From: Escherichia phage N15
Sequence record: NC_001901.1
Direction: 5' to 3' (one strand)
DNA length: 46,375 bases
A program made the translations under genes and the position numbers. This document shows positions 19,855 through 46,375 of this stretch, in pieces. Every line of letters begins with the position of its first letter. The first letter of the stretch is position 1. The notes under the pieces are model-generated. The model ran no database searches. It was given only the letters and a program-made list of their open reading frames with translations, and was not told where the DNA came from.

Positions 19855-20020
19855 ATTTGTTATTAAAAATGCTATAAGGTAGCATTATGTCGCTGTTGTG
19901 AATCCACCTATGCGGATGGGCGTACAGCTGAGCTATCTCTGATGAGATCGTAAACGAGACCGCGGACTCTTTGGCTGGAGAGTTCACTGGGAGGCACCCA
20001 GCACAACAGCAACCAATTAC

Positions 20021-20047
20021 AAACCCTGCTTCGGCAGGGTTTTTTAT
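20021..20047 (+). terminator. rho-independent terminator
   Basis: accctgcttcggcagggt hairpin followed by T-run. Confidence 0.7.
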
Positions 20048-20065
20048 TGCCCAAAAGGAGGGCAT

Positions 20066-21675: not shown

Positions 21676-21691
21676 TTATATGGTGAGAGTT

Positions 21692-22078
21692 ATGGGATTC
21701 CCGAGCCCGGCACAGGACTACGTTGAAGAACGAATATCACTGGACAAGCTCCTCTTGACTAGGCCATCGGCTACCTACTTCATGCGCGCCGGTGCCACTC
21801 ACTATCAAGAAGGTATCCTGTACGGTGCATTGCTGGTTGTTGATGCGTCACGTACACCATGTGACGGCTCGTTACTTGTTTGCCGGATGGATGGCGAACT
21901 TAGGATAAAGCGGTACCGTAAGTCACCAACCCCTCATCTTGAGGATTTGCAAACAGGAAGAAGAGAAGAGATACCGAAATATGATGATGAAACGAGTCCG
22001 GATGCAATATTTGGCGTGATCACGTACAGCATTAACGACATGAGGTCAGGTGAATTTGATGATTGTCCAGTGTTGTAA
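21692..22078 (+). CDS. UmuD'-like protein (already lacks UmuD N-terminal arm)
   Basis: GFPSPAQDYVEERISLDKLLLTRPSATYF aligns with E. coli UmuD from the Cys24-Gly25 cleavage site onward; alternative start 21680. Confidence 0.75.
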   Translation: MGFPSPAQDYVEERISLDKLLLTRPSATYFMRAGATHYQEGILYGALLVVDASRTPCDGSLLVCRMDGELRIKRYRKSPTPHLEDLQTGRREEIPKYDDETSPDAIFGVITYSINDMRSGEFDDCPVL

Positions 22079-22120: not shown

Positions 22121-23149
22121 CTATTTTTTCTCTTTATTTTTTATAATATTTTCCAACTTATCGAGGTCGCGATTAACCTGCTCAGCTGCACCTAATTCTG
22201 CCTCCAATAACGCTTCTATTTTTTTTATTAAATTAGAGGGTATTTTACGGCTATCTACTTTCAAAGTGACAAAACTACCCTTGTATTTAGCTACAACACC
22301 TTCACCATATTTCTTCTCGGTCTTGGGCATTTCTTCCTTATCGACAAGAATAAAGTCCTGTAGTGCCTGAATAATTCTTGCGGGCTCGAAATCCTCTCCA
22401 GCTTGCTTCATACGAAGCAACTGCTTCGCACCATCGAGCATAGTCTGCTCGTTACCCTTATACACTTTAGATAAAGCATCGCCAGCGCGAGCTGATAGCT
22501 CTCCCGGATGCTTGAAGATAGACAGGATCTCCCTCGGTAATCCGGCGGTATTCATGCAGCGGTTCACGATATTACGGTCGATGCCCTCTGCTTCAGCCAG
22601 GGCTTTAACGTTACCATCAAATTCTTTCAGTCGGCGCAAGTACCGTTTCCCGCGTTCGTATGCACTGGTTGGCCGATAGTCGTTACCCAACTGTGACAAC
22701 TGCTGCATTTGTTCATCATCCAGCTCTCCAACGAGAACCCGATAATCGCTACCAGTGATGATGGCTGTTTTGCGGCGGCGTGAGCCATCGGCAATTTCGA
22801 TAATGCCTGACGTCCTTCTGGCGAACGCGGGGTTCTGCTGTCCTGAAGTGAGGAATGAAGGGATAAGGTCGGCCAGCGCTGATTCGTTCAGCAATTCCTG
22901 ATCACGTTCATTACCGAGCCAAACCATTGTGGCCTTTTCGACTTTATCAGCAGGAATGGTTTCCAGCTTAAAAGTCACGTTGCGGCCGCAAACCGGTAGC
23001 GTAATGCTATTCCCGGACAACGAACTTAATTTGCTCTGTAAGTCGCCAACCATCGGCGAAACCGATGGCGCTTTTTGCGGCGCATTATGGTTATTGCTCA
23101 TGAACGTTTCGATGTTGGGCGCATTTTTTAATATAGAGCGATTCTTCAT
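22121..23149 (-). CDS. sopB: partition protein SopB (ParB family)
   Basis: ITLPVCGR, GNERDQELL, DLIPSF, GIIEIADGSRRRK, GELDDEQM, GNDYRPTSAYERG match F-plasmid SopB; ATG 23149 with GGGAGG RBS. Confidence 0.9.
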   Translation of the reverse strand: MKNRSILKNAPNIETFMSNNHNAPQKAPSVSPMVGDLQSKLSSLSGNSITLPVCGRNVTFKLETIPADKVEKATMVWLGNERDQELLNESALADLIPSFLTSGQQNPAFARRTSGIIEIADGSRRRKTAIITGSDYRVLVGELDDEQMQQLSQLGNDYRPTSAYERGKRYLRRLKEFDGNVKALAEAEGIDRNIVNRCMNTAGLPREILSIFKHPGELSARAGDALSKVYKGNEQTMLDGAKQLLRMKQAGEDFEPARIIQALQDFILVDKEEMPKTEKKYGEGVVAKYKGSFVTLKVDSRKIPSNLIKKIEALLEAELGAAEQVNRDLDKLENIIKNKEKK

Positions 23150-23151
23150 AG

Positions 23152-24315
23152 TTAGTCCTCCCAACGAGGTTTGATTAGATCTTCGAAAATTTCTTTGCAG
23201 ACTGGCTCCCAGATTTCCACTGCATTTCGCCAGGCATTAAGCGTTGAGCGTTGATTTGCTGCTTGCTCAAATACGGTGCGCATCTTGATCTGGCCTTTAC
23301 CAACTTCATCAGTGACCCGCACGACCTGTCGCAAGACCATAGCTCCCCAGGTATTTCGAATCTGCTCCTCCATCCACCGGGACTGATTGCCGTTAGTAAG
23401 GCTGTATTTGGTCAGGAGCAGGCGGACGACAGGTTCAAAGCCGCCCAAATCGACGGTTTCAAGCAGGTCGAGCAGCATGGTGAAAAACTGAAGAACTGAT
23501 GCATAGTCGAACAGCTCTGCAGGGGTTGCTACCACGATGACGTCAGCAGCACAGACAACGTTAATAGTTCCCGTACCCAAGTTTGGCGCGCTGTCTATGA
23601 CGATAATGTCGTAGTTATCCCATACAGACTCGATAGCAGCACGAAGCATCAGATGAGGGGGATGAGGTAGCTTCCCCTCGGAATGGTACTGCATCAGATC
23701 TGTTTCAATGCGGTGAAGGGCCAGGCAGCTGGGGATTATGTCGAGACCCGGCCAGCATGTTGGTTTTATCGCATATTCAGCGTTGTCGCGTTTACCCAGG
23801 TAAAATGGAAGCAGTGTATCGTCTGCGTGAATGTGCAAATCAGGAACGTAACCGTGGTACATAGATGCAGTCCCTTGCGGGTCGTTCCCTTCAACGAGTA
23901 GGACGCGGTGCCCTTGCAAGGCTAACCATTGCGCCTGGTGTACTGCAGATGAGGTTTTATAAACCCCTCCCTTGTGTGACATAACGGAAAGTACAACCGG
24001 GTTTTTATCGTCAGGTCTTTGGTTTGGGTTACCAAACACACTCCGCATATGGCTAATTTGGTCAATTGTGTAGCCAGCGCGACGTTCTACTCGGCCCCTC
24101 ATCTCAAAATCAGGAGCCGGTAGACGACCAGCTTTTTCCGCGTCTCTGATAGCCTGCGGTGTTACGCCGATCAGGTCTGCAACTTCTGTTATACCCCAGC
24201 GGCGAGTAATACGACGCGCTTCCGGGCTGTCATCGCCGAACTGTGCGATGGCAATAGCGCGCGTCATTTCCTGACCGCGATTGATACAGTCTTTCAGCAA
24301 ATTAATTAACGACAT
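23152..24315 (-). CDS. sopA: partition ATPase SopA (ParA family, Walker-type)
   Basis: EMTRAIAIAQF..DDSPEARRITRRW, KGGVYKTS Walker A, near-colinear with F SopA; likely start 24315 (GAGG RBS); ORF extends to 24360. Confidence 0.9.
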   Translation of the reverse strand: MSLINLLKDCINRGQEMTRAIAIAQFGDDSPEARRITRRWGITEVADLIGVTPQAIRDAEKAGRLPAPDFEMRGRVERRAGYTIDQISHMRSVFGNPNQRPDDKNPVVLSVMSHKGGVYKTSSAVHQAQWLALQGHRVLLVEGNDPQGTASMYHGYVPDLHIHADDTLLPFYLGKRDNAEYAIKPTCWPGLDIIPSCLALHRIETDLMQYHSEGKLPHPPHLMLRAAIESVWDNYDIIVIDSAPNLGTGTINVVCAADVIVVATPAELFDYASVLQFFTMLLDLLETVDLGGFEPVVRLLLTKYSLTNGNQSRWMEEQIRNTWGAMVLRQVVRVTDEVGKGQIKMRTVFEQAANQRSTLNAWRNAVEIWEPVCKEIFEDLIKPRWED

Positions 24316-24376
24316 CCTGTTTCCTCTCAAACATGCCCTTATCTTTGTGTTTTTCATCATACTTTACGTTTTTAAA

Positions 24377-24420: not shown

Positions 24421-24774
24421 TTAAGGTTCAAATCAATTTTTTGATGCGCTACAGAAGCTATTTAGCTTCATCTAAGCGCAACGGTATTACTTACGTTGGT
24501 ATATTTAAAACCTAACTTAATGATTTTAAATGATAATAAATCATACCAATTGCTATCAAAAGTTAAGCGAACATGCTGATTTTCACGCTGTTTATACACT
24601 TTGAGGCATCTCTATCTCTTCCGTCTCTATATTGAAACACAATCAAAGAACATCAATCCATGTGACATCCCCCACTATCTAAGAACACCATAACAGAACA
24701 CAACATAGGAATGCAACATTAATGTATCAATAATTCGGAACATATGCACTATATCATATCTCAATTACGGAACA

Positions 24775-24830
24775 TATCAGCACACAATTGCCCATTATAC
24801 GCGCGTATAATGGACTATTGTGTGCTGATA
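24775..24830. other. telRL telomere resolution site: 56-bp inverted repeat with central 22-bp perfect palindrome (telO) CCATTATACGCGCGTATAATGG
   Basis: TATCAGCACACAAT...ATTGTGTGCTGATA outer arms and central palindrome read directly; matches remembered N15 telRL. Confidence 0.9.
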
Positions 24831-24994
24831 AGGAGAACATAAGCGCAGAACAATATGTATCTATTCCGGTGTTGTGTTCCTTTGTTATTCTGCTATTATG
24901 TTCTCTTATAGTGTGACGAAAGCAGCATAATTAATCGTCACTTGTTCTTTGATTGTGTTACGATATCCAGAGACTTAGAAACGGGGGAACCGGG

Positions 24995-26890
24995 ATGAGC
25001 AAGGTAAAAATCGGTGAGTTGATCAACACGCTTGTGAATGAGGTAGAGGCAATTGATGCCTCAGACCGCCCACAAGGCGACAAAACGAAGAGAATTAAAG
25101 CCGCAGCCGCACGGTATAAGAACGCGTTATTTAATGATAAAAGAAAGTTCCGTGGGAAAGGATTGCAGAAAAGAATAACCGCGAATACTTTTAACGCCTA
25201 TATGAGCAGGGCAAGAAAGCGGTTTGATGATAAATTACATCATAGCTTTGATAAAAATATTAATAAATTATCGGAAAAGTATCCTCTTTACAGCGAAGAA
25301 TTATCTTCATGGCTTTCTATGCCTACGGCTAATATTCGCCAGCACATGTCATCGTTACAATCTAAATTGAAAGAAATAATGCCGCTTGCCGAAGAGTTAT
25401 CAAATGTAAGAATAGGCTCTAAAGGCAGTGATGCAAAAATAGCAAGACTAATAAAAAAATATCCAGATTGGAGTTTTGCTCTTAGTGATTTAAACAGTGA
25501 TGATTGGAAGGAGCGCCGTGACTATCTTTATAAGTTATTCCAACAAGGCTCTGCGTTGTTAGAAGAACTACACCAGCTCAAGGTCAACCATGAGGTTCTG
25601 TACCATCTGCAGCTAAGCCCTGCGGAGCGTACATCTATACAGCAACGATGGGCCGATGTTCTGCGCGAGAAGAAGCGTAATGTTGTGGTTATTGACTACC
25701 CAACATACATGCAGTCTATCTATGATATTTTGAATAATCCTGCGACTTTATTTAGTTTAAACACTCGTTCTGGAATGGCACCTTTGGCCTTTGCTCTGGC
25801 TGCGGTATCAGGGCGAAGAATGATTGAGATAATGTTTCAGGGTGAATTTGCCGTTTCAGGAAAGTATACGGTTAATTTCTCAGGGCAAGCTAAAAAACGC
25901 TCTGAAGATAAAAGCGTAACCAGAACGATTTATACTTTATGCGAAGCAAAATTATTCGTTGAATTATTAACAGAATTGCGTTCTTGCTCTGCTGCATCTG
26001 ATTTCGATGAGGTTGTTAAAGGATATGGAAAGGATGATACAAGGTCTGAGAACGGCAGGATAAATGCTATTTTAGCAAAAGCATTTAACCCTTGGGTTAA
26101 ATCATTTTTCGGCGATGACCGTCGTGTTTATAAAGATAGCCGCGCTATTTACGCTCGCATCGCTTATGAGATGTTCTTCCGCGTCGATCCACGGTGGAAA
26201 AACGTCGACGAGGATGTGTTCTTCATGGAGATTCTCGGACACGACGATGAGAACACCCAGCTGCACTATAAGCAGTTCAAGCTGGCCAACTTCTCCAGAA
26301 CCTGGCGACCTGAAGTTGGGGATGAAAACACCAGGCTGGTGGCTCTGCAGAAACTGGACGATGAAATGCCAGGCTTTGCCAGAGGTGACGCTGGCGTCCG
26401 TCTCCATGAAACCGTTAAGCAGCTGGTGGAGCAGGACCCATCAGCAAAAATAACCAACAGCACTCTCCGGGCCTTTAAATTTAGCCCGACGATGATTAGC
26501 CGGTACCTGGAGTTTGCCGCTGATGCATTGGGGCAGTTCGTTGGCGAGAACGGGCAGTGGCAGCTGAAGATAGAGACACCTGCAATCGTCCTGCCTGATG
26601 AAGAATCCGTTGAGACCATCGACGAACCGGATGATGAGTCCCAAGACGACGAGCTGGATGAAGATGAAATTGAGCTCGACGAGGGTGGCGGCGATGAACC
26701 AACCGAAGAGGAAGGGCCAGAAGAACATCAGCCAACTGCTCTAAAACCCGTCTTCAAGCCTGCAAAAAATAACGGGGACGGAACGTACAAGATAGAGTTT
26801 GAATACGATGGAAAGCATTATGCCTGGTCCGGCCCCGCCGATAGCCCTATGGCCGCAATGCGATCCGCATGGGAAACGTACTACAGCTAA
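24995..26890 (+). CDS. telN: protelomerase (telomere resolvase, tyrosine-recombinase-like)
   Basis: 631 aa starting MSKVKIGELINTLVNEVEAIDASDRPQGDK, recognised as N15 TelN; acidic C-terminal tail; adjacent to telRL. Confidence 0.95.
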   Translation: MSKVKIGELINTLVNEVEAIDASDRPQGDKTKRIKAAAARYKNALFNDKRKFRGKGLQKRITANTFNAYMSRARKRFDDKLHHSFDKNINKLSEKYPLYSEELSSWLSMPTANIRQHMSSLQSKLKEIMPLAEELSNVRIGSKGSDAKIARLIKKYPDWSFALSDLNSDDWKERRDYLYKLFQQGSALLEELHQLKVNHEVLYHLQLSPAERTSIQQRWADVLREKKRNVVVIDYPTYMQSIYDILNNPATLFSLNTRSGMAPLAFALAAVSGRRMIEIMFQGEFAVSGKYTVNFSGQAKKRSEDKSVTRTIYTLCEAKLFVELLTELRSCSAASDFDEVVKGYGKDDTRSENGRINAILAKAFNPWVKSFFGDDRRVYKDSRAIYARIAYEMFFRVDPRWKNVDEDVFFMEILGHDDENTQLHYKQFKLANFSRTWRPEVGDENTRLVALQKLDDEMPGFARGDAGVRLHETVKQLVEQDPSAKITNSTLRAFKFSPTMISRYLEFAADALGQFVGENGQWQLKIETPAIVLPDEESVETIDEPDDESQDDELDEDEIELDEGGGDEPTEEEGPEEHQPTALKPVFKPAKNNGDGTYKIEFEYDGKHYAWSGPADSPMAAMRSAWETYYS

Positions 26891-26894
26891 AAGA

Positions 26895-26927
26895 AAAGCC
26901 ACCGGTGTTAATCGGTGGCTTTTTTAT
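26895..26927. terminator. rho-independent terminator after telN
   Basis: gccaccggtgttaatcggtggc hairpin + T-run. Confidence 0.75.
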
Positions 26928-27063
26928 TGAGGCCTGTCCCTACCCATCCCCTGCAAGGGACGGAAGGATTAGGCGGAAACTGCAGCTGCAACTACGGACA
27001 TCGCCGTCCCGACTGCAGGGACTTCCCCGCGTAAAGCGGGGCTTAAATTCGGGCTGGCCAACC

Positions 27064-27858
27064 CTATTTTTCTGCAATCGCTGGCGATGTTAGTTTCGTG
27101 GATAGCGTTTCCAGCTTTTCAATGGCCAGCTCAAAATGTGCTGGCAGCACCTTCTCCAGTTCCGTATCAATATCGGTGATCGGCAGCTCTCCACAAGACA
27201 TACTCCGGCGACCGCCACGAACTACATCGCGCAGCAGCTCCCGTTCGTAGACACGCATGTTGCCCAGAGCCGTTTCTGCAGCCGTTAATATCCGGCGCAG
27301 CTCGGCGATGATTGCCGGGAGATCATCCACGGTTATTGGGTTCGGTGATGGGTTCCTGCAGGCGCGGCGGAGAGCCATCCAGACGCCGCTAACCCATGCG
27401 TTACGGTACTGAAAACTTTGTGCTATGTCGTTTATCAGGCCCCGAAGTTCTTCTTTCTGCCGCCAGTCCAGTGGTTCACCGGCGTTCTTAGGCTCAGGCT
27501 CGACAAAAGCATACTCGCCGTTTTTCCGGATAGCTGGCAGAACCTCGTTCGTCACCCACTTGCGGAACCGCCAGGCTGTCGTCCCCTGTTTCACCGCGTC
27601 GCGGCAGCGGAGGATTATGGTGTAGAGACCAGATTCCGATACCACATTTACTTCCCTGGCCATCCGATCAAGTTTTTGTGCCTCGGTTAAACCGAGGGTC
27701 AATTTTTCATCATGATCCAGCTTACGCAATGCATCAGAAGGGTTGGCTATATTCAATGCAGCACAGATATCCAGCGCCACAAACCACGGGTCACCACCGA
27801 CAAGAACCACCCGTATAGGGTGGCTTTCCTGAAATGAAAAGACGGAGAGAGCCTTCAT
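27064..27858 (-). CDS. antirepressor with N-terminal Bro-N domain
   Basis: IRVVLVGGDPWFVALDICAALNIANPSDALRKLD is a typical Bro-N signature; RBS GGGGAGG. Confidence 0.75.
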   Translation of the reverse strand: MKALSVFSFQESHPIRVVLVGGDPWFVALDICAALNIANPSDALRKLDHDEKLTLGLTEAQKLDRMAREVNVVSESGLYTIILRCRDAVKQGTTAWRFRKWVTNEVLPAIRKNGEYAFVEPEPKNAGEPLDWRQKEELRGLINDIAQSFQYRNAWVSGVWMALRRACRNPSPNPITVDDLPAIIAELRRILTAAETALGNMRVYERELLRDVVRGGRRSMSCGELPITDIDTELEKVLPAHFELAIEKLETLSTKLTSPAIAEK

Positions 27859-28085
27859 TGCGCCTCCCCGGATTTCAGCTGCTCAGAAAGGGACAGGGAG
27901 CAGCCGCGAGCTTCCTGCGTGAGTTCGCGCGCGACCTGCAGAAGTTCCGCAGCTTCCTGCAAATACAGCGTGGCCTCATAACTGGAGATAGTGCGGTGAG
28001 CAGAGCCCACAAGCGCTTCAACCTGCAGCAGGCGTTCCTCAATCGTCTCCAGCAGGCCCTGGGCGTTTAACTGAATCTGGTTCAT
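27855..28085 (-). CDS. small protein in antirepressor operon (76 aa)
   Basis: RBS GAGG 5 nt upstream; overlapping start/stop with neighbours. Confidence 0.55.
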   Translation of the reverse strand: MNQIQLNAQGLLETIEERLLQVEALVGSAHRTISSYEATLYLQEAAELLQVARELTQEARGCSLSLSEQLKSGEAQ

Positions 28086-28246
28086 GCGATCACCTCGCTG
28101 ACCGGGATACGGGCTGACAGAACGAGGACAAAACGGCTGGCGAACTGGCGACGAGCTTCTCGCTCGGATGATGCAATGGTGGAAAGGCGGTGGATATGGG
28201 ATTTTTTGTCCGTGCGGACGACAGCTGCAAATTTGAATTTGAACAT
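28082..28246 (-). CDS. small protein (about 54 aa), first gene of antirepressor operon; start uncertain
   Basis: AGGA RBS 9 nt before ATG at 28246; longer ORF to 28384 runs into the terminator. Confidence 0.35.
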   Translation of the reverse strand: MFKFKFAAVVRTDKKSHIHRLSTIASSEREARRQFASRFVLVLSARIPVSEVIA

Positions 28247-28411
28247 GGTATGCATTCCTATCTTGTATAGGGTGCTACCACCAGAGTTGAGAATCTCTAT
28301 AGGGGTGGTAGCCCAGACAGGGTTCTCAACACCGGTACAAGAAGAAACCGGCCCAACCGAAGTTGGCCCCATCTGAGCCACCATAATTCAGGTATGCGCA
28401 GATTTAACACA

Positions 28412-28489
28412 CAAAAAAACACGCTGGCGCGTGTTGTGCGCTTCTTGTCATTCGGGGTTGAGAGGCCCGGCTGCAGATTTTGCTGCAGC
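28412..28489 (-). ncRNA. candidate small regulatory RNA / attenuator leader: promoter (TTGACG-18-TAGAGT) followed about 75 nt later by intrinsic terminator
   Basis: -35 at 28525-28520, -10 at 28501-28496, hairpin aacacgc/gcgtgtt + U-run at 28435-28412 on - strand; N15 immA and P4/P1 immunity RNA paradigm. Confidence 0.45.
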
Positions 28490-29885: not shown

Positions 29886-32800
29886 TTATATCGCCACGGC
29901 TTGCCGCTGGCTTAGAAACGCTTTCAGCAGCCTTATTTCGCGTACTGATAGCAGGTCCATAAATTCGGTCATGTACAGCGAGGCGAACGTTCTCGCGATG
30001 CTGGCCACTGGCCACAGGCGTACCGCCTCCATTTCGGTTGCTGGCAACGCGTTCTCCGCCCACGCCTCCGGTACCGCCACCGGGATAGCCTCCAGTGCCT
30101 GGATAATTACTGATTGTGGGGCGTCCGGAACGTGCTCTGTTTTGGATCGAGGGTTACCATGTATATCTATATTTAGATCCAAATCGCGATCCACTTCGAT
30201 GGTGGTTTTTTCCACCTTACGTGCGTGAATTGATAAACCGGCCTCGCGGCGCTTCTCCACGATATTCATGAGGAACTCGACCGAGTCCGGGTCAATGGAA
30301 CGCATCGTGGGGCGTGCATCGCCGTCTCTGGCGCGTCTGGTCTTACTGGATAGCCCCATAGACTCCAGGATGCCTATGCAGAGGTCTGCAGGCGCTTTCT
30401 TCTTGCCTTTCTCTGTGTTGAAGCCGCCGATGCGTAAAACGTTGTTTAGCAGATCGCGCCGTTCCGGCGTGAGCAGGTTATCTCTGGCGCGTTTGAGGGC
30501 GTCCATGTCTGCTTCACCTTCCAGGGTTTTTGGATCGATACCGCAGTCGCGGAAGTACTGCTGCAGCGTCGCCGATTTGAGGGTGTAGAAACCACGCATG
30601 CCTATCTCAACAGCAGGGGTCGATTTCACTCGGTAATCGGTTATGGCCGGGAATTTAGCCTGGAACTCTGCGTCGGCCTGTTCCCGCGTCATGGCCGTAG
30701 TGACGAACTGCTGCCATCTTCCGGCAACGCGATAAGCGTAGGTAAAGTGAATCAACGCTTCTTCACGGTCAAGGCGACGGGCGGTTATCTCATCCAGCTG
30801 CATGGTTTCAAACAGGCGCACTTTTTTCAGGCCGCCGTCGAAATAGAATTTTAACGCCACCTCGTCGACATCCAGCTGCAGCTCCTTTTCGATGTCCCAG
30901 CGGACCAGCTGGGCCTGCTCATCCAGGGACAGGGTGCGTTTTTTTATCAACTCATCGTGTTCGGCCTGGTCAGGAGTATCGACACTCAGGTGGCGCTCCA
31001 TAAGCTGCTCAAAGACCAGTTCACGGGCTTCTTTACGTAAATCCTTACCGATGCTGTTTGCAAGCGCGTCGGTGGCCATAGGCGCGACCTGATAGCCATC
31101 ATCATGCATGATGCAAATCATGTTGCTGGCATAATCATTTCTGGCCGATGCCTCGAGCGCGGCGGCTTTAATTTTGAGCTGCATGAATGAAGAGTTAGCC
31201 ACGCCGAGTGAAATTCGGTCACCGTCAAAGACAACGTCTGTCAGCAGCCCGGAGTGGCCAGCCGTTTCGAGCAAGGCCTGCGCGTAGGCGCGTTTGATTT
31301 TTTCCGGATCGGTTTCACGTTTACCGCGAAGCTTGTCGAAACCGATAATGTATTCCTGAGCTGTACGGTCGCGGCGCAGCATCTGGATGGCGTCGCTGGG
31401 GACCACTTCGCCGCAGAACATGCCGAAATGGCGGTGGAAGTGTTTCTCCTCAATCGATACACCTGAAGATATCGACGGGCTGTAGATGAGGCCGTCATAT
31501 TTTTTCACCATCACTTTAGGCTGGTTGGTGAAATCGTCGACTTCCTTCTCCTGTTTGTTTTTCTGGTTAACGCAGAGAAACTTTTTGTCAGGGAACTGTA
31601 GTCTCAGCTGCATGGTAACGTCTTCGGCGAACGTCGAACTGTCGGTGGCCAGCATGATTCGTTCGCCGCGTTGCACTGCAGCGATAACCTCGGTCATGAT
31701 CCGATTTTTCTCGGTATAAAATACGCGGATAGGCTTGTTGGTTTCGCGGTTGCGAACGTCGACCGGGAGTTCAATCACGTGAATTTGCAGCCAGGCAGGT
31801 AGGCCCAGCTCCTCGCGTCGCTTCATCGCCAGTTCAGCCAGGTCAACAAGCAGATCGTTGGCATCGGCATCCACCATAATGGCATGCTCTTCAGTACGCG
31901 CCAGCGCGTCGATAAGCGTGTTGAATACGCCTACCGGGTTTTCCATCGCACGCCCGGCCAGAATGGCACGCAGGCCCTGTGTTGCTTCATCGAAGCCGAA
32001 GAAGTCATGCTGGCGCATCAGCGGTTGCCAGCAGCCTTTAAGTATGGAGTTGATGCAAATAGTCAGCTTGTTGGCATATGGCGCCATTTCCTGATAGCCG
32101 GGATCCTGATAATGCAGAATGTCGGCTTTCGCGCCTTTCCCTTCGGTCATCATTTCATGCAGGCCGCCTATCAGGGATACGCGGTGCGCGACGGAAACGC
32201 CACGCGTGGACTGCAGCATCAGTGGACGCAGGAGGCCTGTCGATTTACCCGACCCCATCCCGGCGCGGACAATAACGATGCCCTGCAGCTGTGCGGCGTA
32301 TGTCATCACCTCATCGGTCATCCTGGAGGTTTCAAACCGTTTGTAAGTGATGTGTGACGGGCGAAGGTTCGGGTTGGTGATGCGTTCACTGAACGAACGT
32401 GATGTTTGCGCGGCACGGCATTTGCGATTCAACCGGCGCGTAATGTGATCTTTAACGGTACCGTTATAAATTTCTGCGATACCCATATCCCGCAGCGTGC
32501 TGCTGAAAAGGCGCATAAGTTCTTTCGGGCTGTTTGGTACCGGGCATGTCAGCATGCCAATATCAACGGCGCGAAGCAGTTCTTTGGCAAAAGTGCGTCT
32601 GTTCAGACGCGGGAGAGTACGCAGCTTATTCAGCGTGATCGACAACAGGTCGGTTGCACGGCTCAGATGATTTCTCGTTAACTGGCGAGCGACTTCCTTC
32701 AGCCCTCTCAGGCTGTGCAGGTCGTTAAAATCGCTGCATTCCAGCTCAGGGTCATCCTCAAAAGTTGGGTAAACACATTTGACGCCGGAAAACTTCTCCA

Positions 32801-33860
32801 TGATGTCGAATCCGGTGCGGAGGCCTGTGTTGCCTTTTCCTTCAGCTGAGGATTTGCGGTCGTTATCGAGAGCGCAAGTGATTTGCGCAGCCGGGTACAT
32901 GTTCACCAGCTGCTCGACAACGTGAATCATGTTGTTAGCGGAAACCGCAATGACTACCGCGTCAAAGCGTTTTTTCGGGTCGTTTCTGGTCGCCAGCCAG
33001 ATGGATGCCCCGGTGGCGAAACCCTCTGCAGTCGCAATTTTTTGCGCCCCCTGCAGGTCGCCAATAACAAAGCATGCACCGACGAAATCACCGTTAGTGA
33101 TGGCGCTGGTCTGGAACTTGCCACCATTCAGATCGATACGTTGCCAGCCAACAATCCGCCCGTCTTTTCTTCCGTCCAGGTGGGACAGAGGTATCGCCAT
33201 GTAAGTTGTTGGTCCACGGCTCCATTTCGCACTGTCGTGACTGGTCACGCGACGTATATCACAAGCGCCAAATACGTCACGAATTCCCTTTTTTACCGCA
33301 TAAGGCCAGGAGCCATCTTCAGCTGGCGAATGTTCCCAGGCGCGATGGAAAGCCAACCATCCAAGCAGGCGTTCCTGCTCCATCTGATTGTTTTTTAAAT
33401 CATTAACGCGTTGTTGTTCAGCTCGGAGGCGGCGTGCTTCAGCCTGGCGCTCCATGCGTGCACGTTCTTCTTCCGGCTGAGCGACCACGGTCGCACCATT
33501 CCGTTGCTGTTCACGGCGATACTCCGAAAACAGGAATGAAAAGCCACTCCAGGAGCCAGCGTCATGCGCTTTTTCAACGAAGTTAACGAAAGGATAACTG
33601 ATGCCATCCTTGCTCTGCTCAAGGCGTGAATAGATTTCCACACGGCCTTTAAGGCTCTTCTGCAGAGCTTCCGGGGAGGAATTATTGTAGGTGGTATAGC
33701 GCTCTACACCACCGCGCGGATTGAGCTGAATCTTATCAGCACACGCAGGCCAGTTGATACCGGCCATCTTCGCCAGCTCAGTCAGCTCATCACGTGCCGC
33801 GTCAAGCAGTGAAAACGGATCGCTGCCAAAGCGCTCCGCGTAGAATTCTTGTAAGGTCAT
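29886..33860 (-). CDS. repA: replication protein RepA, multidomain primase-helicase
   Basis: 1324 aa; Walker A GMGSGKST; size and position (downstream of cB) as N15 RepA. Confidence 0.9.
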   Translation of the reverse strand: MTLQEFYAERFGSDPFSLLDAARDELTELAKMAGINWPACADKIQLNPRGGVERYTTYNNSSPEALQKSLKGRVEIYSRLEQSKDGISYPFVNFVEKAHDAGSWSGFSFLFSEYRREQQRNGATVVAQPEEERARMERQAEARRLRAEQQRVNDLKNNQMEQERLLGWLAFHRAWEHSPAEDGSWPYAVKKGIRDVFGACDIRRVTSHDSAKWSRGPTTYMAIPLSHLDGRKDGRIVGWQRIDLNGGKFQTSAITNGDFVGACFVIGDLQGAQKIATAEGFATGASIWLATRNDPKKRFDAVVIAVSANNMIHVVEQLVNMYPAAQITCALDNDRKSSAEGKGNTGLRTGFDIMEKFSGVKCVYPTFEDDPELECSDFNDLHSLRGLKEVARQLTRNHLSRATDLLSITLNKLRTLPRLNRRTFAKELLRAVDIGMLTCPVPNSPKELMRLFSSTLRDMGIAEIYNGTVKDHITRRLNRKCRAAQTSRSFSERITNPNLRPSHITYKRFETSRMTDEVMTYAAQLQGIVIVRAGMGSGKSTGLLRPLMLQSTRGVSVAHRVSLIGGLHEMMTEGKGAKADILHYQDPGYQEMAPYANKLTICINSILKGCWQPLMRQHDFFGFDEATQGLRAILAGRAMENPVGVFNTLIDALARTEEHAIMVDADANDLLVDLAELAMKRREELGLPAWLQIHVIELPVDVRNRETNKPIRVFYTEKNRIMTEVIAAVQRGERIMLATDSSTFAEDVTMQLRLQFPDKKFLCVNQKNKQEKEVDDFTNQPKVMVKKYDGLIYSPSISSGVSIEEKHFHRHFGMFCGEVVPSDAIQMLRRDRTAQEYIIGFDKLRGKRETDPEKIKRAYAQALLETAGHSGLLTDVVFDGDRISLGVANSSFMQLKIKAAALEASARNDYASNMICIMHDDGYQVAPMATDALANSIGKDLRKEARELVFEQLMERHLSVDTPDQAEHDELIKKRTLSLDEQAQLVRWDIEKELQLDVDEVALKFYFDGGLKKVRLFETMQLDEITARRLDREEALIHFTYAYRVAGRWQQFVTTAMTREQADAEFQAKFPAITDYRVKSTPAVEIGMRGFYTLKSATLQQYFRDCGIDPKTLEGEADMDALKRARDNLLTPERRDLLNNVLRIGGFNTEKGKKKAPADLCIGILESMGLSSKTRRARDGDARPTMRSIDPDSVEFLMNIVEKRREAGLSIHARKVEKTTIEVDRDLDLNIDIHGNPRSKTEHVPDAPQSVIIQALEAIPVAVPEAWAENALPATEMEAVRLWPVASIARTFASLYMTEFMDLLSVREIRLLKAFLSQRQAVAI

Positions 33861-35747: not shown

Positions 35748-35973
35748 GCCTGTACTCCGGTACTCTGGCCTCCGTAACGAGTACATCATCTGGTGCCCGA
35801 CATGCGGCTATCGGACTCTTCCTGACAGTAACAGGCAATCCGTAATTACTGAATGGTATTTATCAAATCAACCAGGCAACAAGCATATAGAAAATATCTG
35901 GCTCAAACGTTATCTGGAAATCAAAGAGGGTGCGACCTCGGTCGCACGAGATAATGAAGAATACTCCATTTAA
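35719..35973 (+). CDS. possible small protein with CPTC motif; contains centromere-like palindrome in its 3' end
   Basis: 85-aa ORF, weak RBS; coding status uncertain. Confidence 0.25.
   Translation, partial: QQVMLRKPDKPVLRYSGLRNEYIIWCPTCGYRTLPDSNRQSVITEWYLSNQPGNKHIENIWLKRYLEIKEGATSVARDNEEYSI
35930..35947. repeat. centromere-like palindrome GTGCGACCTCGGTCGCAC (SopB-binding site candidate)
   Basis: One of three copies of GTGCGACC-NN-GGTCGCAC in the window. Confidence 0.7.
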
Positions 35974-39895: not shown

Positions 39896-40183
39896 TCAAT
39901 ACACAGCATGAATATCAATGCTTGCACCGCAAGCCTTAGCGTATCGAGATAGTGTCTTCATGCTGGCACCTAGTGGGTTGCTTTCCAGGCGGCTAATTGC
40001 TGATGGCTGCAACCCCATGCGTTCAGCCAGCGCAGACTTCGTCAGGCCAGCTTTCTCCCTCATCTCGTAGAGCATTTCAACCATCGCCAACTCCTTGTCG
40101 GCATCTTCGTAACCCCGGATAGCCTCCGGGGTATTGAGCAGTTCTTCTTTCACCTGATTAAATGGGATGCCTTTTACTTTCAT
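39896..40183 (-). CDS. HTH (XRE-family) antitoxin, HigA-like
   Basis: 95 aa; LTKSALAERMGLQPSAISRLE HTH; ATG overlaps toxin stop (TAATG). Confidence 0.75.
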   Translation of the reverse strand: MKVKGIPFNQVKEELLNTPEAIRGYEDADKELAMVEMLYEMREKAGLTKSALAERMGLQPSAISRLESNPLGASMKTLSRYAKACGASIDIHAVY

Positions 40184-40494
40184 TAGCTCATCTCCTTCAG
40201 ACGCGTTCTGGCGATATCAATTGCGTGGGTAGGCGTCTTTTGCGTCTTCTTAACAAATGCATGTAGCAGATAAATTTCGTTACCTACCGCGTAAGCGTAC
40301 AGCGTTCTCGCTATGTTTTTATCCCCTACCCTTAGTTCGAAAAGGCCACCACCGATAACGCGGCTATGAGGCATTTTCAGCTTGTTCCCTTCACTTTCCA
40401 GTCTCTCGATCAGCCGGGTCATGCGACCGCGTAGCTCATCAGGTAATTCTTTAAGCTCATCCAGCGCTGCCGGGTGGGTTATCACGTTAAACAT
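40183..40494 (-). CDS. RelE/ParE-superfamily toxin, HigB-like (toxin-first operon)
   Basis: 103 aa from ATG 40494 with AGGAGG RBS; LKMPHSRVIGGGLFELRV...LYAYAVGNEIYLLHAFVKKTQKTP typical of this family. Confidence 0.75.
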   Translation of the reverse strand: MFNVITHPAALDELKELPDELRGRMTRLIERLESEGNKLKMPHSRVIGGGLFELRVGDKNIARTLYAYAVGNEIYLLHAFVKKTQKTPTHAIDIARTRLKEMS

Positions 40495-40554
40495 AGTATA
40501 ACCTCCTGATGTGGAAAATATACTAAAAACGTAAAAATCACACAATAGGCAAAT

Positions 40555-40570
40555 TTCACTAAAAAGTGAA
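40555..40570. promoter_or_regulatory. palindrome TTCACTAAAAAGTGAA upstream of toxin-antitoxin promoter (operator candidate)
   Basis: 5-bp inverted arms; candidate -35 TTGTGT / -10 TATATT on - strand just downstream. Confidence 0.45.
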
Positions 40571-40660
40571 AAATAAAGCTGGATGTGCTTATTGGGCAGA
40601 GTTACAGTTTGTGTCGTTGAGAGGGGTAAAGCCCATAACCGCATGAATCTGGAGTAAATT

Positions 40661-41123: not shown

Positions 41124-41141
41124 GTGCGACCATGGTCGCAC
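41124..41141. repeat. centromere-like perfect palindrome GTGCGACCATGGTCGCAC
   Basis: Perfect 18-bp palindrome (20 bp with flanking C/G). Confidence 0.75.
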
Positions 41142-41251: not shown

Positions 41252-41386
41252 TGCCTGAAAAAGTGGGCGCGGGACGAGTTGCAGCTCATCCCGCGGTCAA
41301 CCCATGCCAGAGGTATAGGCTGAACCCAAAGCCCACCCGCGATGCGCATCGCTGGGTTAGCTTACCCAGGCAGAACCATAATAGCT

Positions 41387-42475
41387 ATGTTAAAAACTAC
41401 ACAAATCAATGGAGCGCAGCTCGTTTGCGCAGATTCTCTGCAATTCATAAAAACCATCCCTGATAATTCCGTAAACCTGATCGCGACAGACCCGCCCTAT
41501 TTTGGCGTTAAGTCGAACGACTGGGACAACCAGTGGGAAAGTGACGCGGACTTTTTGGGCTGGCTTGATGAGTTTCTGGCGGAGTTCTGGAGGATACTGG
41601 CCCCAAATGGAAGCCTGTATATGTTTTCCGGTTCGCGGCTTGCGGCAAAAGTTGAATTACTTACCCGCGACCGTTTCAATGTTTTGAACCACATCACCTG
41701 GGCTAAACCGAGCGGTGTATGGCGGCGGCAAAATAAAGAGAGCCTGCGAGCATTCTTCCCGGCAACCGAGCGCATCATATTCGCTGAACATTACGGCGCG
41801 TCTGGCTATGCGAAAGGTCAGTCGGGTTATGCCAGCAAATGTGCAGAGTTGCGGAAAGACGTATTTTCTCCGTTGATTGGAGCATTTGCATCAGCCCGAC
41901 AGCAGCTGGGGATTTCAGCTGCGGACATCAACGCTGCGACAGGGAAAAAGATGTGTTCACACTGGTTTTCCTCGTCGCAGTGGCAGTTACCGTCGCTGGA
42001 TGACTTCAACAAGCTGCATGAGCTGTTTATGCAGCGGGCGCAAGTTCTCGGCGTAGCATGTCCTCCGCCATTCGATATCGGGTATAGCGAGCATGAAAAG
42101 CAGTATGCCGATCTAAAAACGCAATACGATGCGGTTAAAGCGCAATACGATGGCCTTAAGGCTCAGTATGAAAGCCTGCGCCGCCCGTTCTCTGTGACTG
42201 CAGATGTTCCCTATACGGATGTTTGGGAGTTCCCACCGGTGCAGTATTACCCAGGGAAACACCCGTGCGAGAAGCCAGCTGCGATGATGGAACATATCAT
42301 CAGGAGCAGCTCTCGCCCCGGCGATGTAGTCGCCGACTTCTTCATGGGGTCCGGTAGTACGATTAAGGAGGCTCTGAAGCTTGGGCGTAAGGCCATAGGC
42401 GTAGAAATTGAAGAAGAGCGTTACCTGCAGACAGTAGAAGAAGTTAAAGAAGTAGTAAAAAAAGAAGAGAGTTGA
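41387..42475 (+). CDS. DNA N6-adenine methyltransferase (beta-class, DPPY before FxGxG)
   Basis: NLIATDPPYF (motif IV) precedes DFFMGSGST (motif I); start uncertain (41342 or 41387). Confidence 0.8.
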   Translation: MLKTTQINGAQLVCADSLQFIKTIPDNSVNLIATDPPYFGVKSNDWDNQWESDADFLGWLDEFLAEFWRILAPNGSLYMFSGSRLAAKVELLTRDRFNVLNHITWAKPSGVWRRQNKESLRAFFPATERIIFAEHYGASGYAKGQSGYASKCAELRKDVFSPLIGAFASARQQLGISAADINAATGKKMCSHWFSSSQWQLPSLDDFNKLHELFMQRAQVLGVACPPPFDIGYSEHEKQYADLKTQYDAVKAQYDGLKAQYESLRRPFSVTADVPYTDVWEFPPVQYYPGKHPCEKPAAMMEHIIRSSSRPGDVVADFFMGSGSTIKEALKLGRKAIGVEIEEERYLQTVEEVKEVVKKEES

Positions 42476-44233: not shown

Positions 44234-44565
44234 TGAAAGTTTATATCGCCGGGCCAATGACAGGCCGTGAAAATTATAACCGTGCCGCTTTCAATAAAGA
44301 GGCAGACCGCCTTACCCGCCACGGTCACACAGTTCTGAACCCAGCCAGCCTTCCTGATGGTCTGGAACAGCGCGAATACATGGATATCTGTTTTGCGATG
44401 CTCCGCTGCGCTGATGCAATCATGATGCTGCCAGGCTGGCAAGCGTCGTCCGGTGCGACAGCCGAATATCACTACGCGTACAAAATGGAATTGCCAGTCT
44501 ATACGGTTCTGCATTATCCACCTGTAGCGCTTGAGAAGGAAATTGATGAGCGCCTTTTACAATGA
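44233..44565 (+). CDS. DUF4406-like / nucleoside 2-deoxyribosyltransferase-like protein
   Basis: N-terminal MKVYIAGPMTG motif; ATG overlaps previous stop. Confidence 0.55.
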   Translation: MKVYIAGPMTGRENYNRAAFNKEADRLTRHGHTVLNPASLPDGLEQREYMDICFAMLRCADAIMMLPGWQASSGATAEYHYAYKMELPVYTVLHYPPVALEKEIDERLLQ

Positions 44566-45541
44566 ATTTGAAAGATATCCCGCAACATGGCTAAGCAACC
44601 TGATCGCGAACGGTTCAATAGCAAACGGCATTGTTGATGAGCGCTCTATTGTTGATGTTGCTCCGTCAGATGTTATCAATAAAACGCAATGCCACTGGTT
44701 TGCTGGGATTGGAGTTTGGAGTTATGCGTTGCGTTTAGCTGGCTGGCCAGATAGCCGTTCTGTATGGACAGCCAGCCTGCCATGCCAGCCGTGGAGCTCT
44801 GCAGGAAAGGGAGGAAAATTTGATGACGAACGACACCTCTGGCCTGTGTTTTTCAGACTCGTTAAAGAGTGCCGCCCTCCAGTCATTTTTGGTGAGCAGG
44901 TTTCAAGCAAGGACGGCCTTGAGTGGTTCTCAGCTGTACAAACTGACCTGGAAAATGCGGGCTATGCCGTTGCAGCGCTTGATACATGCGCAGCGAGCGT
45001 CGGTGCTCCGCACATCAGACAAAGAATCTTCTGGATGGCCTACGACTACAGCCAGCAATACCAAAACGGCGATAAAGGATGTAGTGAAAATACTGGCCAG
45101 AAGAGCAGCGGGACGACAGTCGAACTTGCAGGATGTAGCAGTTCTTGCCGGATGGAATACACCGACAGCATCAGACTGCAAAGGAGGGTATCAGGGAGGG
45201 AGGATACGAAACGGGAAATTATCGACCGACCGCCTGGATGTAACATCGCAGTTGGCGGGATGGTCACCCGAAACGCTCCCGTCACTGAATTCAAACCAGA
45301 AAATCACAGCGCCCTGGGGGCCGTGCAGACTGACTCATACTGGAGAGATATTGACTGGCTCTTCTGCCAGGATGGAAAGTGGAGGCCAGTTGAACCCTCA
45401 TCATTCCCGCTGGCTGATGGGATTGCCGGTCGAGTGGGCCAGTTGCGCGCCTACGGGAACGCGATAGTCGCTCCATTAGCGGCAGCATTCATCACCTCGG
45501 CTTATCAGGCAATCCAGGACTTCGAATCCCAAAAAAAATAA
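44546..45541 (+). CDS. DNA C5-cytosine methyltransferase-like protein
   Basis: FAGIGV (motif I-like), [11 protein letters not shown] (PCQ motif IV), FGEQV (ENV-like), QRIFWMAY (VIII), YGNAIV (X); RBS GAAGGAAA. Confidence 0.6.
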
Positions 45542-45560: not shown

Positions 45561-45578
45561 GTGCGACCACGGTCGCAC
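45561..45578. repeat. centromere-like palindrome GTGCGACCACGGTCGCAC
   Basis: Third copy of GTGCGACC-NN-GGTCGCAC. Confidence 0.7.
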
Positions 45579-46363: not shown

Positions 46364-46375
46364 GGGCGGCGTCCG
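46364..46375. other. cos right end; 12 nt identical to window start
   Basis: gggcggcgtccg at both termini. Confidence 0.8.

Follow-up and report, generated by a model that had tools for sequence, protein, structure and literature searches.

Comparison with known protelomerase systems

The closest described system to the locus considered here is that of coliphage N15 (genus Ravinvirus), in which the protelomerase TelN acts on the telRL site inside a larger telomere region, tos (GenBank U63086.1). The locus lies at 24775-26890 in a 46,375-nucleotide stretch of Escherichia phage N15 DNA (NC_001901.1), the whole of which is referred to below as the window. Deneke et al. (2000), as cited in PMC12624138, PMC2847241, and PMC10612081, reported that TelN cleaves telRL and joins the ends into covalently closed hairpins, and the life cycle and the capping of the ends are described in the same three citing papers. 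Comparison with the N15 system revealed no difference: the 56-bp telRL and the 631-amino acid (aa) TelN were identical, and window positions 24741-27000 were 100% identical in nucleotide sequence to U63086.1, which carries, at matching coordinates, a stem_loop annotated "telRL-site; formation of the N15 terminal hairpin loops" and the telN coding sequence. The cohesive (cos) ends and gene order of the window also fit the N15 virion genome. It is concluded, with a probability of about 0.97, that this locus is the N15 telomere-resolution module, with TelN acting on telRL inside tos, and that the prophage is a hairpin-ended linear plasmid. This conclusion draws on analyses made here of sequence identity, domains, catalytic residues, site anatomy, genomic context, and the ends seen in the linear record of a relative; it relies on the literature for the reaction chemistry, for 56 bp being sufficient, for capping, and for the replication cycle.

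The feature is the N15 TelN/telRL system itself, which is textbook biology; an initial annotation made from the sequence alone had already called it described biology, and both of its parts are annotated in U63086.1. The finding defines and names the element. Because the window is the genome of N15, the type specimen of the telomere phages, a large literature is available for annotating the rest of it. The TelN/telRL pair is in wide use, in pJAZZ linear vectors, in doggybone DNA, and in the linearization of E. coli and yeast chromosomes (PMC2847241, PMC9637730, PMC13381899), and the roles of the repeats flanking telRL in tos and of the C-terminal module of TelN are relevant to the way in which capping protects hairpin telomeres from Mre11-Rad50 (PMC12624138).

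The open reading frame (ORF) that the initial annotation had recognized as TelN contained four protelomerase domains in Pfam searches: TelK_N (residues 4-78), TelK_muzzle (81-198), ResT-TelK_cat (260-428), and TelK_stirrup (444-534), with E-values of 1e-24 to 1e-61. The ResT/TelK catalytic domain (PF16684) matched residues 260-428 with an E-value of 8.7e-24, and the TelK-type accessory domains PF22853, PF20849, and PF20818 were each matched over approximately their full length. In phmmer searches of PDB sequences, TelN matched TelK (2V6E) with an E-value of 0, ungapped across residues 1-537, and ResT (8VS5) with an E-value of 8.6e-05. Tyr425 was found within the motif LHYKQF. R275, K300, R383, and H416 were all present as well, and we take these to be the basic active-site residues, with putative roles based on TelK numbering. 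Tyr425 is the only TelN residue confirmed as catalytic, by a Y425F mutant that is without resolution activity (PMC12624138).

Past residue 537, TelN continued with an acidic linker (residues 538-585, 23 of 48 residues D or E) followed by a terminal module of approximately 46 aa. The C-terminal 52 aa had no Pfam match even at an E-value of 10, and matches to PDB sequences were at chance level only. A single-sequence AlphaFold model predicted a beta-hairpin and a helix for the module (pLDDT 75), and the model had no Foldseek match in the PDB at an E-value of 0.001 or less. In tblastn searches the module matched only at the C-terminus of enterobacterial protelomerases. Residues 538-631, encoded at 26606-26887, combine an acidic linker with a conserved module, which is not needed for either of the known activities of TelN (PMC12624138).

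TelK of Klebsiella phage phiKO2 is 77% identical to TelN across the entire protein and shares its four domains and Tyr425. The central 26 bp of the phiKO2 site, GCCCATTATACGCGCGTATAATGGGC, matched N15 at all but one position, and telO, the palindrome at the center of telRL, and the CGCGCG within it were identical. The layout was also similar, with a divergent parAB-like operon and ATTGTGTTAYGAT repeats in the flanks. Differences from N15 were an annotated telRL of 50 bp, a TelK of 640 aa whose acidic linker is longer, and flanks that were largely unalignable beyond a core of approximately 42 bp. Yersinia phage PY54, with its protelomerase Tel and target pal, and P840 are also telomere phages with the same lifestyle as N15. 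PY54 has the ten central nucleotides TACGCGCGTA in common with N15, its tel gene and telN have been reported to be approximately 60% identical (PMC3540006), and the C-terminal module of approximately 46 aa was recognizably conserved (40-46% identity). The PY54 site differs from that of N15 in consisting of a 42-bp palindrome and a separate 15-bp flanking inverted repeat, the latter reported to be important in vivo for PY54 but dispensable in P840 (PMC10612081). ResT of Borrelia and TelA of Agrobacterium have the same type of catalytic domain as TelN (Pfam ResT-TelK_cat) and share its mechanism, in which the cuts are staggered by 6 bp and the intermediate is a 3'-phosphotyrosine, but neither has a muzzle or a stirrup domain (PMC3558466). 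Their substrates are telomeres of chromosomes or plasmids rather than a phage site, and their targets are unrelated in sequence.

The telRL site and the linear plasmid prophage

The telRL site was a 56-bp inverted repeat made up of two abutting 28-nucleotide arms, with 26 of the 28 positions complementary per arm and the mismatches arising solely from TGC/ACT triplets. At its center was the perfect 22-bp palindrome telO, CCATTATACGCGCGTATAATGG, which was the longest perfect palindrome of the 46-kb window and was present in a single copy even when three mismatches were tolerated (no match in any of 100 shuffles). As single-stranded DNA, the 56-mer had a folding z-score of -8.7 relative to shuffles. 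The site ended 164 nucleotides upstream of the telN start codon, so that a palindromic target with a 6-bp palindromic center adjoins the protelomerase gene. The length of the inverted repeat, the central palindrome, and the spacing to telN all agreed with the initial annotation, which had put the last of these at about 165 bp. Alignment with five Enterobacter relatives and phiKO2 showed that telO was identical in all of them, while the spacers around telO drifted to 56% identity. Fifty-six base pairs are enough for processing by TelN (PMC3540006, PMC12624138). In the TelK target, CGCGCG sits between the scissile positions, and the 6-bp spacing of the cuts is common to all known protelomerases (PMC3558466); by analogy with the identical TelK core, we infer that the N15 cuts also flank CGCGCG.

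The context of telRL in the window pointed to a linear plasmid lifestyle. The dyad, at 24802/24803 of 46375, was approximately 53% along the virion map, and the two ends of the window were an identical 12 nucleotides, GGGCGGCGTCCG (1-12 and 46364-46375), like a written-out cos overhang. The overhang is apparently written twice, which gives a unique genome of 46,363 bp. The telRL site is thus near the middle of a cohesive-ended virion map. Pfam matches identified sopA and sopB, divergent from telN as the initial annotation had stated, and the element also encoded its own replication protein, RepA, for which the Pfam matches were weak (origin-binding/helicase, E-value 3.6e-06; Toprim below the curated cutoff). 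The 14-bp palindrome GCGACCNNGGTCGC was present in four copies, compared with 0.11 expected, and these dispersed copies are candidate SopB centromere sites; a centromere site of N15 has been located within repA (PMC2847241), as was one of the four palindromes. Pfam analysis of 25 ORFs of at least 150 aa yielded no integrase, resolvase, or recombinase family among the matches, PHROGs named none for four ORFs that Pfam left unassigned, and the remaining long ORFs were within a lambdoid tail block matching annotated phages. The absence of an integrase, the sopAB genes, the cos ends, and the four centromere-like palindromes fit the linear plasmid lifestyle and, together with the identity to U63086.1, support the earlier suggestion that the element lysogenizes as a linear plasmid with closed ends.

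All four of the GCGACCNNGGTCGC palindromes were in the right arm of the virion map, and none adjoined sopAB.

In the life cycle that this arrangement suggests, the virion DNA would circularize after infection through its 12-nucleotide cos ends. The telN gene encodes a protelomerase with a catalytic mechanism like that of tyrosine recombinases and type IB topoisomerases, and a TelN dimer would bind both halves of telRL. Each Tyr425 would then attack one strand beside CGCGCG, producing 3'-phosphotyrosyl links and 6-nucleotide 5' overhangs, and each overhang would fold back so that its 5'-OH attacks the phosphotyrosine of the opposite strand in the same half-site. Sealing would leave two covalently closed hairpins with their tips at the dyad, and the product would be a linear plasmid prophage, permuted by approximately 53% relative to the virion map, with telN approximately 190 bp from one tip and sopA approximately 440 bp from the other. 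Each time RepA-driven replication had duplicated the telomere palindromes, TelN would resolve them by the same reaction, and it would remain on the hairpins, shielding them from SbcCD, while SopAB would partition the plasmid via the four dispersed centromere sites.

The ends of a relative were consistent with this model. The N15 sequence itself is the virion form, and prophage ends at the telO dyad were seen in the GenBank record of NAR688, a phiKO2-like prophage deposited as linear, in which one end was exactly at the dyad (GCGTATAATGGGCTATTGTGTGCT...), the other was 6 nucleotides past it, and the same arm pointed inward at both ends. The record of 48ST307 began approximately 36 nucleotides past the dyad, a start that would be consistent with reads having run around a hairpin. 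The close relatives, with 86-95% identity, were all Enterobacter plasmids or phages. Enterobacter phage MStein-2023a, classified in Ravinvirus, was the next closest record after U63086.1. A megablast search with 24600-25400 (telRL and the 5' part of telN) against 5,426 complete genomes of E. coli gave no match; telomere phages of E. coli that are more distant, YDC107_1 and PhiR46_1, do exist.

One N15-like plasmid, p53EVA-1 of Enterobacter cloacae (38.3 kb), kept telRL, the right flank, and telN, and its left flank was non-homologous from approximately 70 bp to the left of telRL, with no sopA annotated within the 400 bp examined there. This plasmid may be a rearranged or truncated telomere phage.

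The sequence itself offered nothing that contradicts a linear prophage with hairpin ends, and the conclusion has four limits. All of the close relatives were deposited as circular, and in the closest ones from the plasmid collection and in MStein-2023a telRL was intact and internal, which at face value would speak against linearity. These topologies more likely reflect an assembly artifact, because telLL, telRR, and telRL share almost all k-mers, or lytic or virion forms in culture. A scan for sigma-70 promoters found none on the plus strand between the telomere tip and the telN start codon, the integrase check covered ORFs of at least 150 aa, and the cleavage positions and hairpin ends proposed for the exact N15 DNA come from the literature and from relatives. 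An alternative is that the ORF encodes an ordinary tyrosine integrase and that the palindrome serves as attP, operator, or terminator, with the prophage integrated or circular. The catalytic fold is indeed akin to that of tyrosine recombinases (PMC3558466), a terminator scan also flagged the palindrome as a hairpin, and the circular Enterobacter records would be as expected. However, there was no Phage_integrase match (PF00589) on TelN or on the other ORFs scanned, all four domains were specific to protelomerases, the element carried plasmid-type partition and replication genes, the related linear record ended at the dyad, and the sequence was identical to the experimentally characterized TelN and telRL. 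An integrase with attP was rejected on this basis; it is extremely improbable, and effectively refuted already.

Repeats flanking telRL in the tos region

The recognized functional region is larger than telRL. Primers tosLOC and tosROC-2 (PMC2847241) mapped to 24610-24627 and 24955-24974, which gives a region of 365 bp beginning 165 bp before 24775. This region was framed by a 29-nucleotide outer inverted repeat (24624-24652 and 24943-24971, 86% complementary), and a local inverted repeat (24833-24853 and 24885-24905) was confined to the telN side. The natural target of TelN is given as approximately 310 bp with degenerate arm copies, L1/L2 and R1/R2, in PMC12624138, which cites Deneke et al. 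2002 for it, and higher-order capping has been speculated for this extended target (PMC12624138).

The initial annotation had stated that "GGAACATA"-like motifs recur on both sides of the palindrome and may be accessory binding sites. Recurrence on both sides was borne out. The density of GAACA in 24600-24990 was 12.8 times that of the window as a whole, with left-flank cores at 24648, 24683, 24696, 24738, and 24770. When the flanks were scanned with the outer arm of telRL (ATTGTGTGCTGATA, up to four mismatches), seven additional arm-like sites were found, where the remainder of the window would predict 0.27 and composition-matched shuffles 0.39, and none of 2000 shuffles gave seven. The strands of these sites mirrored the dyad, with four of four on the minus strand to the left and three of three on the plus strand to the right. 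The exact pattern GRGAACATA did not hold up as the flank motif, as there were two exact copies and 10 of 100 shuffles equaled that; it was dropped in favor of the arm-like scan and GAACA density. The "GGAACATA" motifs are better described as degenerate, mirror-oriented copies of the outer arm of telRL.

In the alignment with the five Enterobacter relatives, repeat blocks were 78-99% conserved (99% for 24943-24966) versus 56% for spacers, a comparison that is descriptive because some of the block boundaries were drawn after the alignment was viewed. The sequence ATTGTGTT / TTGTGTTA, read outward from the tip, was common to the two arms of N15 and of phiKO2 and to NAR688 at one end, and the consensus of the flank repeats was close to GATTGTGTTAYGAT. 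The orientation, enrichment, and conservation of these repeats are compatible with the view of higher-order capping by TelN, with binding to them putative.

Any telN promoter in the prophage must fall within the 192 bp between the tip and the start codon, among the repeats, which makes autoregulation of telN through the flank repeats plausible. Two candidates picked manually, TTGTTA and TATAGT separated by 19 nucleotides and CATAAT without a -35 element, were rejected as too weak.

The flanking GAACA and ATTGTGTT repeats may be accessory TelN sites, contacted for example by the stirrup (CTD1) domain, that recruit several TelN molecules to each telomere, either as a cap or loop against SbcCD or for repression of the telN promoter; this would complement the identification of the locus as the N15 telomere-resolution module. 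This is a serious possibility, though one that falls somewhat short of an even chance. The number and mirror orientation of the arm-like sites, the conservation of the repeat blocks, the recurrence of ATTGTGTT / TTGTGTTA in relatives, the arm copies in the natural target as cited in PMC12624138, and the necessary position of the telN promoter, within 192 bp of the tip, all argue for it. However, the 56-bp telRL alone suffices in vivo and in vitro (PMC3540006), deletion of CTD1 leaves protection when the protein is induced (PMC12624138), and the flanking inverted repeat of P840, a relative of PY54, is dispensable for resolution (PMC10612081). Within the flanks themselves, GAACA at 24835 and 24848 on the right side breaks the mirror orientation, and the choice of some blocks after the alignment had been seen tempers the conservation argument. 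A more specific proposal is that the GATTGTGTTAYGAT-like arrays at 24630-24765 and 24833-24965 are low-affinity secondary TelN sites that would build a multi-protein cap or loop at each hairpin and, on the telN side, would make telN expression self-limiting. This is offered tentatively, with the odds against it. If it is true, tos is a true telomere-like repeat array, not a recombination site with decoration. The idea has already been floated (PMC12624138); the present analysis contributes a rule for the orientation of the sites, statistics on their enrichment, footprints in relatives, and the motif shared with phiKO2-like phages.

It is also conceivable, but unlikely, that the repeats serve as promoter or operator elements of telN or sopAB for another regulator, or bind a host architectural protein, and resemble the arms by shared descent only. 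N15 and the phiKO2-like phages agreed in the three positions at which the flank consensus GATTGTGTTAYGAT differed from the arm ATTGTGTGCTGATA, which indicates that the flank repeats form a distinct conserved class, and the inverted repeat on the telN side looks operator-like. However, the same repeats were found on the sop-side arm, which is without the telN promoter, extended occupancy of the region is credited to TelN in the literature (PMC12624138), and a candidate regulator was not identified.

Feature coordinates and other genes of the window

The coordinates of the features discussed above, together with the best sigma-70-like match in the intergenic region and a terminator-like hairpin, are collected in Table 1. 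The record of phiKO2 has a terminator annotated as 'putative bidirectional' at the place equivalent to the latter.

Table 1. Features of the telomere-resolution module and related features in the window
Feature	Position	Strand	Basis
telRL, 56-bp inverted repeat, minimal TelN substrate	24775..24830	.	U63086.1 stem_loop 'telRL-site' at matching position; PMC3540006, PMC12624138
telO, perfect 22-bp palindrome	24792..24813	.	100% conserved in five Enterobacter relatives and phiKO2
Central CGCGCG; putative staggered cuts 6 bp apart flanking it; hairpin tips would be at dyad 24802/24803	24800..24805	.	sequence and PMC3558466
Left outer arm of telRL, TATCAGCACACAAT	24775..24788	-	sequence
Right outer arm of telRL, ATTGTGTGCTGATA	24817..24830	+	sequence
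tos region, telRL and flanking repeats, full telomere site as used in the field	24610..24974	.	primer mapping, outer inverted repeat
Left flank repeats; arm-like sites 24630-24643, 24678-24691, 24691-24704, 24752-24765	24630..24765	-	arm scan
Right flank repeats; arm-like sites 24895-24908, 24908-24921, 24952-24965	24833..24965	+	arm scan
telN, protelomerase, 631 aa, catalytic domain with Y425; ATG at 24995, stop ends at 26890	24995..26890	+	Pfam, phmmer against PDB, U63086.1 identity
Terminator-like G+C-rich hairpin with T runs, directly after telN	26894..26923	.	scored on minus strand; T run follows on plus strand too
Best intergenic sigma-70-like match, 10/12, facing sopA	24530..24559	-	consensus match only
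sopA, ParA-type partition ATPase, divergent from telN	23152..24360	-	Pfam AAA_31, CbiA; homologs in relatives annotated SopA
sopB, centromere-binding protein; coordinates of the listed ORF, true start may lie downstream	22121..23164	-	Pfam SoPB_HTH, E = 8e-21
Centromere-like palindrome GCGACCACGGTCGC inside repA	33481..33494	.	further copies at 35932-35945, 41126-41139, 45563-45576
repA, 1324-aa linear-plasmid replication protein	29886..33860	-	weak Pfam matches; role from PMC2847241

The left 19 kb of the window contained lambdoid head and tail genes, approximately 90% identical to those of HK225 and mEp237. A full-length Rfam match (72.5 bits) to the gammaproteobacterial small RNA STnc100 was found at 19863-20048 on the plus strand, with the tail genes on one side and, on the other, a 470-aa ORF that has a Peptidase_S74 (endosialidase chaperone) domain. 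Directly downstream of sopB was a 132-aa, UmuD-like ORF with a Peptidase_S24 domain (21680-22078, plus strand), and phiKO2 has the same gene in the same place.

Rfam matches to C4 antisense RNA (78.8 bits) and isrK (62.4 bits) were found at 28301-28388 and 28414-28489, both on the minus strand. The C4 match overlapped the 5' end of a 100-aa ORF (28082-28384, minus strand) for which the U63086.1 protein is named 'cA secondary immunity repressor', and the layout resembled the immI operon of P1, with c4 RNA and icd followed by antirepressors at 27855-28085 and 27064-27858 (Bro-N). This overlap and the immI-like layout indicate that the secondary immunity repressor of N15 may be an RNA rather than the cA protein.

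The right arm contained two DNA methyltransferase ORFs, one of the N6/N4 type (41342-42475, plus strand, E-value 3.6e-50) and one with a partial match to the C-5 cytosine type (44531-45541, plus strand, E-value 1.2e-15), and a Gp49-like ORF (PF05973) was found at 40183-40644 on the minus strand.

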